From: a virus
Strand: one strand, 5' to 3'
Length of the DNA: 64,000 nt
Virus record (IMG/VR): IMGVR_UViG_3300035703_000047
Location: 24,986 to 88,985 of that record
Below are positions 3,483 through 33,562 of the stretch, one piece after another. Under the pieces are notes generated by a model. That model saw only the letters and a program-made list of their open reading frames with translations. It did no database searches and was not told the DNA's origin. Position 1 is the stretch's first letter; each line of letters opens with the position of its first letter. The translations under genes and the position numbers were made by a program.

Positions 3483-4437
3483 AAACTTCAATTTTTTTTA
3501 CATCTTTTACTTTTGAAAAAACTTCATTATTCCATCTTTTTTGCAAATCTGCATCATTATACCAATCTTTTTCAATTCGATGAAATTTCAAAAGATCATT
3601 ATTGACAACAATTGAGCCAAGATAATATCTACCTAATGCTAATTTACTTAAATCATCTAAAGGAATTTTATCTTTCGTATCTTGATTTAAATTTTTATAC
3701 CAAGTATGGAATTGAGATTCAAGTTCCTTCAAAAAATGCGGTCTTTGATGAAAACAAAGCCATGCTTCCGAACTATACATGCTTTGTATTTTTACTTGTT
3801 CGTTATCAACAACCCTAACATCATTATCATATGCGGCACTCATAAAATCTTTACCCAAGGTATTATATCCAAGATAAAGATGACCCCAAGAAAACTCTGT
3901 GGTTAAAAATATTTTATCCTCTTCTTCTAATTTTTTACCTGGATATGGAGGAAAAACCGTGACTAAACAACTATAGTTTGGAAATTCCCCTTTTCTCGTC
4001 TGCAATGCATTCTCGGTTATATGAATATAATCATTAAGATTCAACCAAGCAGTATGAATTTTTTGACCACGAGCCCATGGGCCGTTACCAAAATCAGACT
4101 TCTCACCATATTCTTCAAATTTTTCATGTAGATTATTCAGATTAACTCTAGTCAAATCCCCAAGTCCCTTTAAAGGAATTAGAGGTTTATGTTCATATGC
4201 AAAATTAATAATATCAATTAAAGAATTAAGTTTTTCATACAATTCACGCAGATTTGTATAGTTTTTATTTGATATATCAAGATTAGGATAGGAGTTTTTA
4301 GTCTTTGAATAACTCTTAACTTCTTGTATCCATCTATCAGTTAAACTACTATTTTGAAGATTATAAAGTAATTGAAGTAATTTTCCATTTTCCAATTCAA
4401 AGGTATACCTTACACTTTTTCTTCCTGATAAAAACAT
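3475..4437 (-). CDS. Hypothetical protein (320 aa)
   Basis: Long AT-rich ORF, overlaps the start of the hydroxylase fusion gene, late promoter core upstream. Confidence 0.75.
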   Translation of the reverse strand: MFLSGRKSVRYTFELENGKLLQLLYNLQNSSLTDRWIQEVKSYSKTKNSYPNLDISNKNYTNLRELYEKLNSLIDIINFAYEHKPLIPLKGLGDLTRVNLNNLHEKFEEYGEKSDFGNGPWARGQKIHTAWLNLNDYIHITENALQTRKGEFPNYSCLVTVFPPYPGKKLEEEDKIFLTTEFSWGHLYLGYNTLGKDFMSAAYDNDVRVVDNEQVKIQSMYSSEAWLCFHQRPHFLKELESQFHTWYKNLNQDTKDKIPLDDLSKLALGRYYLGSIVVNNDLLKFHRIEKDWYNDADLQKRWNNEVFSKVKDVKKIEVYG

Positions 4438-4469
4438 TTTAATAAAAAATCAAAATAATAACGATAATT

Positions 4470-4476
4470 TATTTAG
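4470..4476 (-). promoter_or_regulatory. T4-like late promoter variant (CTAAATA)
   Basis: About 33 nt upstream of ATG 4437. Confidence 0.55.
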
Positions 4477-4478
4477 TT

Positions 4479-5362
4479 TCAATCGAATCGGGAACTCTGC
4501 ATCTCATCACTACGTTTTTTGTCCGCACGACGCTTTGCAACCTTCTGTGCTGGAGATGCAGGTGCGCCATATTGACCAGCAGTAGGTGGTTTTTTACCAG
4601 GAACTTTTTTACGTTGTCCAGCAGGAGTTCCCTCCATACCACGAATCATTTTTTTAACATGGGTGTATGCCTTATCAGTCGATCCACCGGACTTGACTTC
4701 TTTACCAGTCTTATAATCCTTACCAGTTTCTTTTTCGTAGCGATTGAGTTCGCCAATCAGGACTTTCCCAGGCAAACATCCTCCATGATTGATTCAAACC
4801 AGGACTCACTCATGTTGAGAATAATTTTATCTGCAGCATCTTCGGTTGACGCAAATCCTTCGTCAAGAAGATAGGATAAAACTAATTCATATGTATTGAT
4901 ACTTTCACCAATCTCACCCATTGCCTTTTGCTTACGCAGTTTCTTGGGATTCTTGGTTACTGTGCCAGAACCATGTTTGTGTCCGCCAGAAGTATACTCA
5001 ACGGCACTATCTCTTGCATAATCTCTAGTATCTTGATCTAGTTTTCCTCTACCAGATTTACCCGCAAAACCAGAGTATCTAGGTTTAGTGGATTTCTTAC
5101 CACGATCCCCAGCATCAGGTCCATTATCAATTCTACGAGTGTGTTTTTCAATTTCTCTTACTTTCTTGGTCTTTTCACCTTTCTGCGAATACTCACTTGC
5201 TGGTTTCTCACGTCTAGCAATAGCAACTTTTCCCATTGCCGCTCTTGCCTTTGGAGTTTTGCCATAAGAACCTTCTGCCTCAAGAATTTCTTCAACTTCT
5301 TCTTGAAAGACATTAACTTGTCGATAGGCTTCCATTAGGCTTTGCAGATCTTTAATGTCCAT
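4479..5362 (-). CDS. Basic, low-complexity putative head-internal protein, encoded as two ORFs (4757-5362 and 4479-4775) joined by a candidate -1 frameshift
   Basis: YELVLSYLLDEGFASTEDAADKIILNMSESWFESIME module; second ORF is in the -1 frame and has only a TTG start; slippery G_GGA_AAG in the overlap; late promoter upstream. Confidence 0.65.
4749..4786 (-). other. Candidate -1 programmed ribosomal frameshift signal
   Basis: Minus strand ATG GAG GAT GTT TGC CTG GGA AAG TCC TGA TTG GCG AA: GGAGG (4780-4784), 10-nt spacer, GGGAAAG (4763-4769), UGA (4757-4759). Confidence 0.6.
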
Positions 5363-5384
5363 GTTTTTACAAATACTTTTTAGT

Positions 5385-5392
5385 TATTTATA
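5385..5392 (-). promoter_or_regulatory. T4 late promoter TATAAATA
   Basis: Perfect consensus 22 nt upstream of ATG 5362. Confidence 0.8.
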
Positions 5393-5415
5393 AAAAAAGA
5401 AGGGTTTTCCCTTCT
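5392..5415 (-). terminator. Rho-independent terminator after the cobT-like gene
   Basis: AGAAGGG-AAAA-CCCTTCT followed by a U tract. Confidence 0.8.
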
Positions 5416-7622
5416 CATGCAACAAAGTCAATAAACTCACCAAGAACTTTCTTATTCATTTTTTTACTCTTCAGGGACTTGACAAACGCAGATCGAATCT
5501 GAGTTTTACTTGCATCATCAGAAACTTCAAACTCTGCATCATTAGAAAGAGCAGAGCCAGAAAGACCAAAGTATACATGATATCCAGATTTTTTAATTGA
5601 AAAGGATTTATGTTTCTTCCAATCATTCATGATCTCATTGTATTCCTTATTCTCCGAATAATACCCAGAAGAATAATCAGAAGTTTCATAATAACGACGA
5701 ACAAAACTTCCTGCATCACGACCTTCCAGGACCCGAATACCAATAAAATTTACATCTGTAAAACGATCACGAAGATTGCGAAGAAGAACATCAGTAAAAC
5801 TAGTAAAATCTCCTTCCAAGTTGTAGGAGAACCCGATTTTACGATCTCGTAGAATAGTATTCACTCCAATAGAATTCAAACCAATATACACTTCTTCGGA
5901 GTCATAATTAAAACGACCTTTAAATTCTTTGTGAAATTTAAGAGGTGCAGCTTCACCATCAGTCAAAACCACACACTGAACTTTCTGAAGTTTATTTTCC
6001 TGTTGAAACTGAGGAAGAATTTGATGAAGTGCAACCAAGCTTTCATTCAAAGGAGTTCCAGAAAGAGAAAGACGATATGGATGAGTATACTCTGGTGCAT
6101 CATTATAGGAGTACTTGAACTCTTTTGCCAACCTAAAGATGTTAATCATTTGTTCTTCAAGAACACGATTATTCACTTTACTGGTAAACAAGTTCATAAG
6201 TGAGAAAGATTCATCAACATGAATCAACCCATGTTTTTTCTCATAATGAGGTTTAATAGGTTGTGGATAATTATTTTCATCCCGATCTGGGCGGCGCCAC
6301 TCATTAGTAAATGCATAAACCTCAAATGGAATAGATACTTTCTTACAGAACCAAATCAAATTATAAAGTTGTTTGATAGTATCCATCATAACATTAGACA
6401 TTGAGCCGGACCAATCAAGAATAAAGACCAAACCATGATTCTTACCATTAGCAAGAGTAGTGACTTTCTTGAACAGGTCTTCGTTGTATTTGTAAGTATG
6501 AAGTTTAGAACAGTCCAGAACACCAGTACGGGCAGTAGTAGCACGAGCGTAAGAATCTGCTGCCTTACGACACTCAAACTCTTTGACCAGATAATTGACT
6601 TCCTTCTGTGCAGAACGTTTAAATTCAATATATTCTCTATCTACTTTTCCAAAAAGATGATTTTTAGCGAAATTATAATGTTGTTCCTCAAACTTTTGAA
6701 TTGTTTTTGACCACCAATCATTAATTTCTCCATGAACATCAGAATTAGATGCAATGACTGTATCAAGATTCAATTTGGGAATCTGCAAGTAAATATTTTC
6801 TGAAGAATTTGTATTCACAAGATCCCGAATTGCTTCTTCAAGATTATCTACAGTTTTAACTTCAGGTTCAGAAGTATCACCCCCAATATTCGAAGTTTTA
6901 TCTGAAGGAATATCGGTTTTTTCGTCGGACTGACCATCAGAAGGGGACTGGTTACCTTGACCGGAAGTTTCTAGATCATCCTTATCCGAAGACTCCTGAG
7001 ACATGTCCTCGGACTGATTACTGGGAGTAGATTGAAGATTATCAAAAGAATCAATCTTAGTTTTTTCTAGATCTTTTCTCTTACAATACTCATAAAGTTT
7101 TACAGCAGCTGCAATCGCATCATCAAAAGTTTCTGCATCTGCAACCATATTCAGGATCTCAGTTTCTTCACCCCGTTCAATAGGAACCTGAGTAAATCCA
7201 CCGATCTTAAACCACAGATTTACACGATCAGCTAAATTGTAAGTAGAAATATCATCATCCTTAATCTGGAAAAAATCATCCTCATGCAGTTCCTTATATC
7301 CCGCAAAGAAAGATTTATTGAGACCGGCATAACGACGCTTCATCATCTTTTCGATGCGAGCGTCCTCAGTTACATTCACGAATTGTTGGGGAATGGTAAA
7401 CTTCTTACTCCAATCCTCATTAGGAGTATAAAGTGCGTGACCCACTTCATGTCCAACAAGCATATCGTATATAGAGTTAGAAGCCTTCTCCCACATGGGG
7501 AGAGTCAACACACGAGTATCCACATTGAAACATGCAGTAGGAACATGTTTGTGTTCCACCACAAGGTCTTCCGTTGCGAGAAGACGAGCGAGTTGACCTT
7601 TGACTTCGTGATTAACAGGCAT
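5415..7622 (-). CDS. CobT-like protein: N-terminal HExxH metallopeptidase-like domain, acidic linker, C-terminal VWA domain
   Basis: HEVGHALY, EDARIE, MIDAS DWSGS...GTP...LTDGE. Start MPVNHEVK at 7622 preferred because 7667 lies upstream of the -10 box. Confidence 0.85.
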   Translation of the reverse strand: MPVNHEVKGQLARLLATEDLVVEHKHVPTACFNVDTRVLTLPMWEKASNSIYDMLVGHEVGHALYTPNEDWSKKFTIPQQFVNVTEDARIEKMMKRRYAGLNKSFFAGYKELHEDDFFQIKDDDISTYNLADRVNLWFKIGGFTQVPIERGEETEILNMVADAETFDDAIAAAVKLYEYCKRKDLEKTKIDSFDNLQSTPSNQSEDMSQESSDKDDLETSGQGNQSPSDGQSDEKTDIPSDKTSNIGGDTSEPEVKTVDNLEEAIRDLVNTNSSENIYLQIPKLNLDTVIASNSDVHGEINDWWSKTIQKFEEQHYNFAKNHLFGKVDREYIEFKRSAQKEVNYLVKEFECRKAADSYARATTARTGVLDCSKLHTYKYNEDLFKKVTTLANGKNHGLVFILDWSGSMSNVMMDTIKQLYNLIWFCKKVSIPFEVYAFTNEWRRPDRDENNYPQPIKPHYEKKHGLIHVDESFSLMNLFTSKVNNRVLEEQMINIFRLAKEFKYSYNDAPEYTHPYRLSLSGTPLNESLVALHQILPQFQQENKLQKVQCVVLTDGEAAPLKFHKEFKGRFNYDSEEVYIGLNSIGVNTILRDRKIGFSYNLEGDFTSFTDVLLRNLRDRFTDVNFIGIRVLEGRDAGSFVRRYYETSDYSSGYYSENKEYNEIMNDWKKHKSFSIKKSGYHVYFGLSGSALSNDAEFEVSDDASKTQIRSAFVKSLKSKKMNKKVLGEFIDFVA

Positions 7623-16989: not shown

Positions 16990-16997
16990 TATTTATA
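16990..16997 (-). promoter_or_regulatory. Late promoter TATAAATA for g22-g23
   Basis: Perfect consensus with an overlapping second ATAAATA. Confidence 0.8.
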
Positions 16998-16999
16998 AA

Positions 17000-17650
17000 T
17001 TATAGATTTGACAGAAACTCTTGGAACAGATTTAACTTCTGTTCATCAAGTCTTCTCTGGTCTATAAGTGTATTTATTCTTTTTTGGGTTCTTTCTGCAA
17101 GTTGTTCACGAAGGATTCCTCCATCCCAAACCCACTCTTTGCCTTCCATAATTCCAGAAACAAAAGCATCTGGAGCGGAAGGATCAGCAACGATATCAGC
17201 TGCAGTAGCAAGCATGAAATCTTCACCGACAATTTTGTGTCCTTCACTAGTTGTTTGTAGAGAACCTACACCACGAGAAGAAACACCAAGCATTACGCCC
17301 TCATCCAAAAGGGAGGATGCAATCTTACCCATAGGAGTATTAAGAATTTGTGCTTTACCTTTGAAGTTATTACCTTCCTGAACTAGTGAAGTAATCTTAT
17401 GCGAAACGCGATCAAGATTTACTGTTGGGCCATCTGGATGGCCAAGTTCTCCAAGAGCACGACCTTTTTGAACAAACTGCTCATTGTAACGATCTACTTC
17501 ACGGGAAAGAACATTAATTGGATACATTCTTCCATTGCGATTTTTAATTTCTCCTTGGAGAAATACGCCTTCAATATAGAGTTTTTTATTAACACCTTTT
17601 CCTTCGGTGATAATCTTTACATTCGTTACTTCTTCGGTAATTAGTTTCAT
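17000..17650 (-). CDS. g21: Prohead protease
   Basis: NRNGRMY, GELGHP, GVSSRGVGS, DIVADPSAPDAFV. Confidence 0.95.
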   Translation of the reverse strand: MKLITEEVTNVKIITEGKGVNKKLYIEGVFLQGEIKNRNGRMYPINVLSREVDRYNEQFVQKGRALGELGHPDGPTVNLDRVSHKITSLVQEGNNFKGKAQILNTPMGKIASSLLDEGVMLGVSSRGVGSLQTTSEGHKIVGEDFMLATAADIVADPSAPDAFVSGIMEGKEWVWDGGILREQLAERTQKRINTLIDQRRLDEQKLNLFQEFLSNL

Positions 17651-19947: not shown

Positions 19948-19955
19948 TATTTATA
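19948..19955 (-). promoter_or_regulatory. Late promoter TATAAATA for g20
   Basis: Perfect consensus overlapping the g19 stop. Confidence 0.75.
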
Positions 19956-23403: not shown

Positions 23404-25052
23404 TATCTATAGTCCCACATATATTGACTATCTCCATATTCATCAACATGCCATCTATTACCATCTTCATCCACAAAACTCTCACCACCTTCCAGTCCAT
23501 CAGTAATAAATCCGAATGGTGCCATATCTTGTTCAATTTGATTCTTTTGTTCTTCATATAATCTTTTACGAACATCATTATCGGTCATCTCTTTGAAATA
23601 TGGTTGCATAATCAACCATGAAAAAATAACTAAACACATTGCGAGATCATCATTACAACCATCTTCTGCTTCAAAGGAGTTTGACTTTTGAATAAAAGTT
23701 GTCAATTCACTTATAGTGTCATAGTCCTTTATAAGAAGTTTATCGGATTCAATTAATGCCTTAAGATTCATACATCCAATCTTTTTAACATTCTTTGACA
23801 TTTTAACTCCCATTTGAGATTTCTTTCCAGAAAATCCCTGCCCAACTAATTGTCCGGCTCGACCTCTCATCGTACACATTAAGACATTATCGTACTCCAA
23901 GTCCATGTGGAGGATTTGTCCTACTTGTTCTCCAACATCATTTACTTCTACAAGAATATATGCTTTATTATAAGCAACAGCAAGATCTTTTATGATACTT
24001 GGAAACAACATCGGTTTAATTTGATTGTTTCTATATTTTGCTACAAGTCTATATGGAAATGTCGTTGTATCACAAACAGTGAATGCGGAGTAATCTTTTT
24101 CTACACCACGAGCTACATCTACAGTTAAAACATAATTGTGATCTTTTTGTGGTTCCTCATAAATGTCCAATCCTGCATTAGATTTAATTGGATCTTCATA
24201 CACTAAAGATCTGAGTTTTGCTGCAGATACAAGTGTATCCGAAGATCCCAAGAAATCACATTCAAACTCTTGTTGGAATTGTTCTTTTGAAGTGTTGGCT
24301 ATCGTCTGGGCTTTCCACTTATCGTCTCTGCCTGGAACTTCAGACCAATGTACATCCGTGGGTATATATTCATTTCTACCCCTTTCGGCGTCATGCCACA
24401 TGCGGTAAAAGTGATTCATACCCTTGGGGGTAGAAACTATGATAACTTTTGTGCTTTGTCCAGACGATATAGTAGGATAAACAGAGGCAAAGAATTCATC
24501 AGCAATGTGATTCGGTATGAAAGCGAACTCGTCCAAAAAGATGATATTATATGATCCGCCTCGGACAGCAGATGCAGAAGTAGATGCGGCGATAATTTTG
24601 GAACCATTTTCCAGTTCTAAAGATCGTTTATTCCATGATACAATACCTTGTTGCATCCACTTCGGCAGTTTCTCGTATGCAAATTGTAACCTACTAAGTA
24701 AATCCTGTGCAGTAGACGCTTTGTTGGCTAGAATAGCTATATTAACATTATCATTAAATACAGCATAATGTAACAAATATGAAACACAAGTAGTAGATTT
24801 ACCCGTCTGACGAGGCATTCTACAAATATTAAATCTATTTTCATGGAAGTTGGTGATCAACTTTTCCTGAAAAGGATACATCTTAAACGGTATTTCACCA
24901 TAATCAAGGGAAACAATTTTAATATAATTTTTAGCAAAATACACAGGATCATTCTTGCACTTGATAAACTCAAGAATTTGTTCCTGTGTAAATTCTACGG
25001 CTACATTAGCCTTTTTGAGATTGGGATTACCAAGATATACCTGATCACTCAT
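23403..25052 (-). CDS. g17: Terminase large subunit
   Basis: YLGNPNLK, PRQTGKST, FLDEFAF, DVARG, NDDLAM. Confidence 0.97.
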   Translation of the reverse strand: MSDQVYLGNPNLKKANVAVEFTQEQILEFIKCKNDPVYFAKNYIKIVSLDYGEIPFKMYPFQEKLITNFHENRFNICRMPRQTGKSTTCVSYLLHYAVFNDNVNIAILANKASTAQDLLSRLQFAYEKLPKWMQQGIVSWNKRSLELENGSKIIAASTSASAVRGGSYNIIFLDEFAFIPNHIADEFFASVYPTISSGQSTKVIIVSTPKGMNHFYRMWHDAERGRNEYIPTDVHWSEVPGRDDKWKAQTIANTSKEQFQQEFECDFLGSSDTLVSAAKLRSLVYEDPIKSNAGLDIYEEPQKDHNYVLTVDVARGVEKDYSAFTVCDTTTFPYRLVAKYRNNQIKPMLFPSIIKDLAVAYNKAYILVEVNDVGEQVGQILHMDLEYDNVLMCTMRGRAGQLVGQGFSGKKSQMGVKMSKNVKKIGCMNLKALIESDKLLIKDYDTISELTTFIQKSNSFEAEDGCNDDLAMCLVIFSWLIMQPYFKEMTDNDVRKRLYEEQKNQIEQDMAPFGFITDGLEGGESFVDEDGNRWHVDEYGDSQYMWDYR

Positions 25053-25233: not shown

Positions 25234-26877
25234 TTATTTACCTTGAATAACTACGATTGGTTTGGATGGATCAGTAGGACTTGGATACCACTGCAGTATA
25301 ACTGCACCCGGATAGAACTTCTCAATTTCCGTTTTTACTTCATCTTTAGAAGGTCTCTTCATATTTGGGAAGAAGAGTTGAAGATTCATCATTGGTCTAC
25401 CTCTCCAAGAGAAGAGTATAGTATAAACATTACCAGTAGATTGTATCCGTTGATAGTCCTCGTTTGTTAATTGTCCAGGTTGAATTACAGAATCTGCAAG
25501 AGGTAAAGAGGGGCCAGAAAGTTTTTTAAGTGCGGCGTTCTTTTCATTTGGATTAGTATTACCAGTTGCAAGATTTCTGATTTTTGCTTGCCTTTGTGCC
25601 TGTCTATGTCCAGAACCAATTTCAAAACTCACATTCTCATTTGCTGGATGAATATCATTTGGATCATATGGATCTGGAGCTAGAGAAGCTGGAAGTGAAA
25701 ACATTCTCCAATAACCTTCACCATATCTACACTCTTTCATTGTTTCGTTCTTTTTACACTTAGGGCAATATCTCTGAACTTCCCCCATTTCCTGAAGTTC
25801 AAAAGATTCCTTCTTGGTCTTATTGCCCCAATTCTTTGCGCCCACTTTACGACACTTAACGAGAGCACCAGATGCATATGCAGATGGCCAAACCTTATAA
25901 CGAGACTTTACCTTTGAATAACATGCATCTTTTTCTTCAGTCGCAACCATCTTTGCCTTACCCTTTCTATCGGGATTGGGGTCTTCTTGATTCTTACGAC
26001 GGAATGCACTCTCCTCTTCCTTATCGGAAAGATCTGCTTTCATTTTACTTGAACCGCACTTTGGTTTGGTTGTTTGTCCTGGTTGTTTTGCACAGGGTTT
26101 TCCCGAGTATTTACCACCCAATTGAACCCAACCAGGGGTGCCATCAGAAGCGCGACTCTTAGTAAACCAGTCACGCAAAGAATAATCACCACTCTTGTTT
26201 TCATTAATAAAATCCTCCTTCACACAATTAGGAACTACTTTCTTCCCCTTCTTCTTCATTCCAAGTTGTTTATATCCATCCCAACATTTCTCAAATACTG
26301 GTTCACTAAAGCTCTTAAATTTATAATCACTACCCTTAATAATATCAACAACGTGTGCAAAAGTATTGCCATTTGCATCGTGAAGTTCTGTCCACTCTTC
26401 CTTTACTTTTTCCATCTTTTTGAGTTTGGAGTAGTAATTAGGAATTTCATCTAGATGTTGCAATGCAATATCCATTGCTTCATTATTATCTGTAGTATGT
26501 TCATGTTCAACTTTTATCCCCATCTCAAGTTGTTTTTGGATGGTTGATGGGGATACTTTATGCTTTTTTGCGATTTCTTCTACTGACTTATGACCTTTGA
26601 ATCCTTCTTTGACTTCTTTCTTTCTTTCAGTATCATCTTCTCCGTGAGAAAGATGATCAGCTACCGTATCAAGATACTCTGCAGCCTTTGTAATTTTTGA
26701 TTGAACCCAAGCTTCTAAATCGCCTTCACCTTTAAGTTTAGTCATTAATCTGGTGATAGCAGCCTGTGCAGTTTTAAGTTCTCCACGAGCCATGGAAAAC
26801 TCAAAGTCTTCCCCAAGAGGTGTAATAACTTCTAGATCTGCAAGAATAGACCACTCTTTAAATGTGAGTTTATCCAT
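25234..26877 (-). CDS. Modular basic protein (547 aa), putative head-associated
   Basis: Mosaic of short modules: EAWVQSKITKA, VEHEHT...HLDEIPNYY, CWDGYK...VPNCV, WPSAYASG, CPKC. Confidence 0.8.
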   Translation of the reverse strand: MDKLTFKEWSILADLEVITPLGEDFEFSMARGELKTAQAAITRLMTKLKGEGDLEAWVQSKITKAAEYLDTVADHLSHGEDDTERKKEVKEGFKGHKSVEEIAKKHKVSPSTIQKQLEMGIKVEHEHTTDNNEAMDIALQHLDEIPNYYSKLKKMEKVKEEWTELHDANGNTFAHVVDIIKGSDYKFKSFSEPVFEKCWDGYKQLGMKKKGKKVVPNCVKEDFINENKSGDYSLRDWFTKSRASDGTPGWVQLGGKYSGKPCAKQPGQTTKPKCGSSKMKADLSDKEEESAFRRKNQEDPNPDRKGKAKMVATEEKDACYSKVKSRYKVWPSAYASGALVKCRKVGAKNWGNKTKKESFELQEMGEVQRYCPKCKKNETMKECRYGEGYWRMFSLPASLAPDPYDPNDIHPANENVSFEIGSGHRQAQRQAKIRNLATGNTNPNEKNAALKKLSGPSLPLADSVIQPGQLTNEDYQRIQSTGNVYTILFSWRGRPMMNLQLFFPNMKRPSKDEVKTEIEKFYPGAVILQWYPSPTDPSKPIVVIQGK

Positions 26878-33554: not shown

Positions 33555-33562
33555 TATTTATA
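33555..33562 (-). promoter_or_regulatory. Late promoter TATAAATA
   Basis: Perfect consensus upstream of ATG 33513. Confidence 0.75.

Follow-up and report, generated by a model that had tools for sequence, protein, structure and literature searches.

A candidate programmed −1 frameshift site in a probable head-cargo gene of a T4-like cyanophage

Introduction

Does a late gene of a T4-like cyanophage give rise to two proteins through a programmed −1 ribosomal frameshift? This question is raised by two overlapping open reading frames (ORFs), ORF1 and ORF2, on the minus strand of a 64,000-nucleotide (nt) stretch of viral DNA (IMG/VR record IMGVR_UViG_3300035703_000047, positions 24,986 to 88,985), hereafter called the window. 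The window is part of a metagenomic virus contig of 88,985 bases, with a completeness of about 46%. The genome is of the T4-like cyanophage type, with the gp20 portal, gp21 protease, gp22 scaffold and gp23 capsid protein all encoded, and its closest isolates are Synechococcus phages of the Kyanoviridae. An initial annotation, made from the letters of the DNA, had proposed that a slippery heptamer near the end of ORF1 lets ribosomes enter ORF2, so that a late, basic, head-internal protein is made in two forms, one short and one long. To our knowledge, phage frameshifts are known mainly in tail-chaperone genes and in a few capsid genes, and we know of none in the internal or cargo proteins of T4-like phages. 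A search of the full-text literature on cyanophages and ribosomal frameshifting found nothing relevant.

Here, we report that the frame break between ORF1 and ORF2 recurs in diverged relatives. We consider a programmed −1 frameshift at the heptamer G_GGA_AAG, giving forms of 201 and 294 amino acids (aa) from one late gene, as the best reading of the sequence data, and we hold it with moderate confidence.

Results

A shift-prone heptamer in the overlap of ORF1 and ORF2

On the minus strand, the 3′ end of ORF1 reads ...ATC ATG GAG GAT GTT TGC CTG GGA AAG TCC TGA, and the heptamer G_GGA_AAG lies inside the ORF1/ORF2 overlap, where a −1 frameshift site has to be (Table 1). A −1 slip at this place would give a product of 294 aa with the joint ...SIMEDVCLGK/VLIGELNRYEKE. 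On re-reading, everything that the initial annotation had stated about the sequence itself (minus-strand reading, phase, ORF limits, 294 versus 201 aa) was correct. G_GGA_AAG is highly shift-prone in E. coli (PMC5009743). Across the 19,893 codons of the window's long ORFs, it occurs in phase as a single copy, while ten in-phase sites of the general form X_XXA_AAG were counted; the chance that such a site falls within an overlap of roughly 6-10 codons is about 0.03-0.5%. When about 140 related loci were scanned for other ORF ends combining an in-phase heptamer with a long −1 extension, nothing recurrent was found.

Two halves of one gene, separated by a 32-nt insert

ORF1 and ORF2 are, by sequence homology, the halves of one gene, because homologues carry both parts fused in one frame. 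Indeed, searches that started from ORF1, ORF2 or a relative yielded about 180 IMG/VR loci in which an ORF1-like spacer (...NMSE(S/A)WFE.IM) and the ELNRYEKETGK... module stand in a single frame (for example in L064, L057, L063, L084-86 and L099-101). About 120 single-ORF proteins have C-termini homologous to the ORF2 module, and the product WJZ48229 of phage DSL-LC02 reads across the joint without interruption. DNA alignment with unsplit loci delimits an insert of 32 nt in the window (Table 1), which contains the slippery site, the ORF1 stop codon, a TTG codon and a new I-G-E joint. This insert has no second copy in the genome and no match elsewhere in the collected loci. One locus (L135) was considered as a relative of the insert and rejected: WFESIMED is common to both, but the DNA of L135 is unrelated. 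A search by DNA pattern for the split-form joint in IMG/VR viral contigs and in JGI metagenome contigs, of which the last pattern was verified to match the window, also found none.

The frame break recurs in diverged relatives

Protein searches over 5.8 billion sequences, with records from ENA, JGI and Logan, gave a different picture. Besides ORF1 itself, we found 14 further clusters (at 90% identity) of ORF1-like proteins of 188-264 aa, 66-87% identical to ORF1, all of which end in ...SWFESIMEDVCLGK(S/F). Their last residues are ...SWFESIMEDVCLGKS or ...CLGKF, so that 15 clusters with CLGK(S/F) are known when the window is included, and they display at least six different N-terminal architectures. 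On the other side of the break, 24 ORF2-like gene calls of 98-110 aa were collected, all starting with (M/L)PGKV and all open to the usual C-terminus of the family, ...SSRFD. Among those of 99 aa, 17 are distinct; 24 of 98 positions vary, mostly by K/R, S/T, I/M, D/E and A/V exchanges. One of the 24 calls, P0146 (110 aa), has an identity of only 48%; its sequence reads LPGKVVLGERNR. In cluster look-ups, the split form was counted in about 73 contig records versus 7 for an in-frame form, and some of these records may go back to two assemblies of one sample.

In six cases, an ORF1-type and an ORF2-type protein have an equally long longest contig (10474, 93143, 8968, 9652, 8776 and 2033), and these pairs appear to be partners on one contig. 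Together, the residues C-L-G-K in frame 0 and L-P-G-K-V in frame −1 fully determine the bases T TGC CTG GGA AAG. Since the residues of both frames are fixed, the heptamer is therefore conserved in the ORF1/ORF2 pairs, by deduction from the proteins. The sole change seen beside the heptamer is that of S to F (TCC to TTC), which is silent in the −1 frame (GTC to GTT). Among carriers, the flanks of the joint are 90-100% identical, along about 50 aa in ORF1 and 24 aa in ORF2. Moreover, a protein from an ENA contig of 852 nt (P0167) has a proline-rich middle module and ends in ...NMSESWFESILEEVSLGK (...EEVSLGK), with Ser in place of Cys; its 3′ end is uncertain, and from its sequence this is a diverged split-form tail.

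A recurring break right after C-L-G-K is what a programmed −1 frameshift predicts. The initial annotation had inferred that long and short protein forms are made, and had proposed related phages as a check for the conservation of GGAGG, 10 nt of spacing and GGGAAAG as a unit. At the protein level, the frame break and the heptamer residues recur in diverged, mosaic relatives within one sub-lineage, which also has in-frame derivatives; most of the family is without the insert.

Independent assemblies and in-frame derivatives

The DNA of the joint was compared with contigs of four public runs, aligned to positions 4300-5600. In the Logan assembly of the probable source run, 4300-5391 is reproduced with zero differences. 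In two freshwater runs of another study (X3 and X4), contigs span the joint without a gap and show the same frame break; the X3 variant differs from the window by 24 substitutions, all located in 4964-5285 and 18 of them at third codon positions of ORF1. The DNA of the segment is thus real, being upheld by independent assemblies and by a second study.

A contig of a marine run (X2 record 8) is identical to the window over 4300-4936, apart from a single substitution and a gap of 8 nt at 4767. Together with the IMG/VR homologues, all of them unsplit, this contig had first led us to read the window as a one-off 8-nt indel allele, leaky at best; that reading was ruled out by the presence of the split form in many lineages in the protein searches. 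A second in-frame form, with 7 contig records, encodes 283 aa and reads ...IMEEKVLIGELNR. Each of the in-frame forms, which are rare, is the split form with a single deletion, of 8 nt (TGCCTGGG or TTGCCTGG) or of 11 nt (TGTTTGCCTGG), which makes the split form the ancestor of at least one of the two. Finally, other contigs from the same samples as the split form lack all 32 nt.

A modular protein with features of head cargo

ORF1 is composed of a leader, a basic EGSYG...KNPKKLRKQKAMGE module, an acidic helical spacer (...NMSESWFESIM) and the tail EDVCLGKS. While Pfam and PHROG gave no family match for ORF1 or ORF2, the family defined by their relatives is modular and mosaic. The motif (I/L/V/M)-x-E precedes the ELNR-type module in 58 of 58 distinct occurrences and the AEGSYG module in 46 of 46 (104/104 together), for a background frequency of 2.5%; in this count, the P1 Glu is part of a conserved motif and the P3 hydrophobic residue is found in 30 different contexts. 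Two types of leader exist in the family, MDxK(D/E)LxxLxEAY (in ORF1, MDIKDLQSLME/A) and MKxFxxF(I/L)xE. The latter closely resembles the T4 capsid targeting sequence, for whose properties we relied on PMC9026906. A gp21-family (S77) prohead protease is encoded in the window (PF03420 match at 17003-17650, 131 bits).

The T4-type late-promoter motif TATAAATA occurs 5 times in the window versus 11.3 expected, a depletion that would suit a motif reserved for late promoters; four of these copies precede an ATG of the minus strand by 22-41 nt. Because a terminator-like hairpin lies upstream and TATAAATA, found also 26-35 nt before the gp20 portal and gp22 scaffold genes, stands 22 nt before its ATG, ORF1 is very probably a late gene. 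Altogether, the promoter motif, the gp21-type protease, the capsid-targeting-like leaders and the 104/104 joints fit the guess of a late, basic, head-internal product, and we consider from the sequence that the ORF1/ORF2 product is a probable head-internal cargo protein. It was also right to set it apart from tail chaperones: the gene does not lie between major tail and tape-measure genes and shows no chaperone homology.

Several related genes deserve mention. In four loci (L047-L050; about 2471-2800 in L048), a stand-alone gene of 105 aa joins the leader MK(Y/D)FQEFLSE directly to the ELNRYEKETGK module, the ORF2 module being here an independent cargo gene. In one locus (L173, about 2001), an in-frame stop lies inside an ELNR-type module (G*PVTKGG), which may be a broken or recoded copy. 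The protein S-SZBM1_194 (gp194) is 79% identical to the ORF1 module. The gene just upstream of it, S-SZBM1_195 (L001 2175-2438, 87 aa), encodes the third most abundant virion protein by emPAI, the exponentially modified protein abundance index (PMC9146016), and no slippery site was found at the 195/194 junction. In the window itself, one continuous ORF of 547 aa (25234-26877, minus strand) between the small- and large-terminase genes starts with MDKLTFKEW and has the motif CW.GYK...KKKG..VPNCV in common with an S-CREM1 gp219 homologue and with L082; it contains an in-phase A_AAA_AAG at 26569 and is probably another cargo polyprotein.

Two observations concern the borders of the modules. The 44-nt block 4914-4957, which encodes KNPKKLRKQKAMGE, is repeated in the same genome with 91% identity (G000:C1:8196-8239, L145), and the module borders 4914 and 4751 are the exact places where many Logan contigs break or jump. 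Together, these observations point to module shuffling at the DNA level at fixed joints.

Gene layout around the joint

The neighbours of ORF1 and ORF2 are a VWA/peptidase gene, a 320-aa gene, a 2-oxoglutarate (2OG)-oxygenase fusion and a CobS-like AAA gene. No tRNA gene was found within the window, and short overlaps are frequent among the genes of this phage. In the probable source run, contig depth sums to about 3,600 over the segment 5356-5399, which holds TATAAATA, the leader and the start of ORF1, versus about 22 beside it; this promoter-leader segment seems common to far more abundant phage loci. A length polymorphism of one T was seen at 5376. The coordinates of all features are listed in Table 1.

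Table 1. Features of the ORF1/ORF2 locus and related elements of the window
Feature	Position	Strand	Remarks
ORF1	4757..5362	minus	zero frame; 201 aa; stop TGA 4757-4759
ORF2	4479..4775	minus	−1 frame relative to ORF1
−1 frame continuation VLIGE/LNRYEKETGK...SSRFD	4479..4763	minus	94 aa plus stop; strongly basic C-terminal module
Slippery heptamer G_GGA_AAG	4763..4769	minus	zero-frame phase, X at codon position 3
TTG	4773..4775	minus	sole start codon in the −1 frame ORF; alternative way of expressing ORF2
GGAGG	4780..4784	minus	within Met-Glu-Asp codons; 10 nt 5′ of the heptamer, 4 nt 5′ of TTG 4775
Hairpin UGGCGA-N6-UCGCUA	4738..4755	minus	6 bp; starts 7 nt 3′ of the heptamer
32-nt insert GAGGATG...ATTGGC	4752..4783	minus	by DNA alignment with unsplit L064, L057, L063 and L069; ambiguity about 2 nt
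8 nt TGCCTGGG	4767..4774	minus	missing from near-identical contig X2 record 8; loss gives one 291-aa ORF ...EDVKVLIGELNR
Leader MDIKDLQSLME	5330..5362	minus	L-x-E end before Ala; candidate capsid-targeting/propeptide segment
T4-type late-promoter motif TATAAATA	5385..5392	minus	22 nt upstream of the ORF1 ATG
Intrinsic-terminator-like hairpin and T-run	5397..5416	minus	8-pair stem GAGAAGGG/CCCTTCTT; ends upstream 750-aa VWA/peptidase gene
Further TATAAATA copies	16990-16997, 19948-19955, 33555-33562	minus	26-41 nt upstream of gp22 scaffold, gp20 portal and 335-aa gene

Discussion

How the two forms could be made and used

If the heptamer is used, the following scheme can be proposed. The insert between the acidic spacer and the basic ELNRYEKE module breaks the frame in one sub-lineage. 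Most ribosomes would read CTG GGA AAG TCC and stop at the UGA, giving the 201-aa protein as the major form. A minority, we infer, would slip by −1 on G_GGA_AAG with the tRNA-Gly and the tRNA-Lys (to GGG AAA), enter ORF2 and make the 294-aa fusion as the minor form. The linker DVCLGKVLIGE (11 aa) would then lie between two protease-type sites, IME/ and IGE/, and processing would release mature pieces as in the unsplit relatives; such trimming to the same mature pieces would explain why the insert is harmless. In this way, the C-terminal basic module would be supplied at a low and fixed dose and be taken into the head by the leader of ORF1. Elsewhere, ELNR modules are always found behind a leader-bearing polypeptide or behind their own T4-like leader MK(Y/D)FQEFLSE, which would make the trans-frame fusion the route of ORF2 into the head.

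Several points weigh against a programmed frameshift. The cassette is confined to one sub-lineage, most of the family being without the insert. Proteins that stop after the spacer occur naturally (L106, of 179 aa, and L110), and a simple truncation could therefore be tolerable. The TTG codon and GGAGG belong to the same invariant stretch as the heptamer, so that a separate initiation of ORF2 predicts the same pattern at the protein level. The conservation of the heptamer was deduced from proteins and from equal-sized longest contigs, and that of the joint as a whole may come partly from the recent spread of one recombining cassette. Frame-restoring deletions probably arose twice (8 nt and 11 nt) and at least once, and the break could thus be a burden or a cost rather than a device. 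A tRNA-Lys(CUU), if the host has one, would lower slippage on A_AAG. Finally, gp194 of S-SZBM1 is absent among the 30 virion proteins identified by mass spectrometry (PMC9146016, Table 1), which is weak evidence given that Lys/Arg-rich proteins yield poor tryptic peptides.

The candidate stimulators belong to the same side of the balance. GGAGG occurs 26 times on the minus strand of the window. Shine-Dalgarno-like motifs of at least 4 bases were found upstream of only 10 of 41 window genes, with GGAGG in none of those 10, so that Shine-Dalgarno use is low in this phage. Against shuffled sequences, the hairpin 4738-4755 is unremarkable (−6.4 kcal/mol, z = −0.98, 31 of 200 shuffles equally stable), and the fold of 4740-4800 gives z = −0.08, that is, no significant local structure. 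The layout of dnaX and IS911, which the initial annotation had recognised here, is thus present in its spacings, GGAGG at 10 nt and a hairpin at 7 nt. It is not established as a stimulator because the hairpin is not significant, GGAGG is frequent and lies in coding sequence, and Shine-Dalgarno motifs are rarely used. The lambda G/GT shift needs no 3′ structure, so a weak hairpin is compatible with a frameshift of this class.

Could ORF2 be translated or lost in another way?

The strongest competitor is a gene split into two, in which ORF2 would start at TTG 4775, either through GGAGG or by termination-reinitiation, the heptamer being a coincidence. We regard it as unlikely, even though it has much in its favour. 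The TTG is the sole start codon in the −1 ORF, gene callers use it in 24 of 24 related calls, and GGAGG lies just upstream. Short overlaps are frequent among this phage's genes. The predicted N-terminus, MPGKVLIGE/LNR, ends in an I-x-E site and might be a short propeptide, and a stand-alone ELNR module with its own leader is known in other phages (L047-L050). On the other hand, a TTG start would be unusual in this phage, since a plausible ATG was found for 41 of 41 genes in the window's list of ATG-start genes. The rarity of Shine-Dalgarno-like motifs and the lack of GGAGG among them, described above, also count against this start, and the 4 nt between GGAGG and TTG are a short spacing. Moreover, MPGKVLIGE is without the aromatic positions of the T4-like leaders of the family (PMC9026906), and a lambda-type heptamer would come to lie in phase in a 6-codon overlap with a chance of only about 0.03-0.3%. 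In the protein P0167, whose 3′ end is uncertain, any Ser codon in ...EEVSLGK abolishes the −1-frame TTG yet keeps L-G-K. If ORF2 nevertheless starts at the TTG, the locus would be a clean, though less novel, example of a 32-nt insert that splits a polyprotein gene in two.

Less probable still, in our view, is a tolerated truncation, in which the insert would do no more than terminate the protein behind the spacer, and ORF2, not usefully expressed, would remain intact since the cassette is young and recombining. Such an outcome would be in line with the natural occurrence of ORF1-only architectures (L106, L110), with modules that look like independent cargo units, with the near identity of the joint region among carriers, with the mosaic pattern of X3 and with the occurrence of frame-restoring deletions. 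Yet ORF2 stays open as far as ...SSRFD in about 73 records, among which at least six architectures of ORF1 and several subtypes of ORF2 are represented, and the substitutions in ORF2, singletons included, are mostly conservative. The split form also prevails about 10:1 over its in-frame derivatives, although in-frame and insert-free alleles co-occur with it in samples. In addition, G_GGA_AAG is intrinsically leaky in bacteria (PMC5009743).

A one-off recent mutation or an assembly error of this contig is very improbable: the window does come from a metagenome contig that is 46% complete, the pattern scans of IMG/VR and JGI contig DNA were without the split form and a near-identical contig lacks 8 nt of the insert, but the break is reproduced in the Logan assembly of the probable source run and in the second study, and is carried by 14 further ORF1-type clusters and 22 further ORF2-type calls. 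We give the least credit of all to a translational bypass from GAG 4783-4781 to GAA 4751-4749, skipping 32 nt to read ...SIM-E-LNR; take-off and landing would both be Glu codons 32 nt apart and the product would equal the insert-free relatives exactly, but the codon after take-off is GAT, neither a stop nor slowly decoded, 4740-4800 has no significant structure, and the residues of the insert are conserved in both frames and partly translated in the in-frame derivatives.

What a frameshift at this joint would mean

Coming back to a programmed −1 frameshift as the best reading, both the frameshift and the gene class are plausible and backed by the recurrence of the break, and a lambda-type slippery site stands here in a new gene class and a new lineage. 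If the slip is real, T4-like cyanophages would use translation to tune the composition of their head cargo. The split form, the 8-nt deletion, the 11-nt deletion and the insert-free form would then constitute a natural allelic series. In dozens of metagenome contigs, moreover, a functional fusion would appear in routine annotation as two separate 'hypothetical proteins'.

More tentatively, and with clearly less confidence than in the frameshift itself, the insert might be a portable recoding joint. It would convert a 1:1 fusion into a dosed pair, with a linker that is trimmed at IME/ and IGE/, spread by recombination among T4-like cyanophages and be erased by 8- or 11-nt deletions, for a dosing of head cargo, presumably injected, that would recall that of Gag-Pol. 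Were this true, the wild in-frame alleles would be ready-made controls.

Comparison with known recoding systems

Bypassing is known from gene 60 of T4 and from the byp elements of yeast mitochondria. As in T4 gene 60, a short non-homologous insert lies here in a T4-like coding sequence and is flanked by synonymous codons; unlike in gene 60, both a stop after the take-off codon and a take-off hairpin are absent, and the residues of the insert are conserved.

Compensatory ('corrective') frameshifting at indels is a class described in PMC5009743. Our locus resembles it in having an insertion that disrupts a gene otherwise intact among relatives, together with a shift-prone site in the overlap through which the frame can be restored. 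It differs in that the unshifted product is useless in those cases, whereas here ORF1 alone is a natural architecture and the split form is the commonest in the sub-lineage. With the signals of E. coli dnaX and IS911, the joint shares the geometry, with GGAGG upstream and a hairpin downstream at the distances given above, but this hairpin is no better than those of shuffles and GGAGG is frequent on the strand.

By analogy, T7 gene 10A/10B and retroviral Gag-Pol may also be compared: in these systems as, possibly, in ours, assembly or packaging is directed by the N-terminal part, and a trans-frame extension, which is rare, comes along at a fixed ratio. Here, however, the protein would be cargo and not shell, and the linker would be removed by the prohead protease. 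The T4 internal proteins IPI, IPII, IPIII and Alt may be compared as well: their late promoter, short leader ending in (L/I)-x-E, basic cargo modules and gp21-family protease all find a likeness here. Unlike them, the proteins of this family are polyprotein-like strings of modules with internal joints, without sequence homology to the T4 proteins. We know of no frameshift in the T4 internal-protein genes.

Finally, lambda gpG/gpGT consists of a short major and a long minor product, made from overlapping late ORFs through G_GGA_AAG with no strong RNA structure needed. The gene studied here differs from it in being that of a head-cargo-type modular protein of a T4-like myovirus, which does not lie between tail tube and tape-measure genes, and in having a break that is limited to one sub-lineage and lost in some relatives. 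In its overlapping late ORFs, it nonetheless carries the identical heptamer, G_GGA_AAG, in the same phase.

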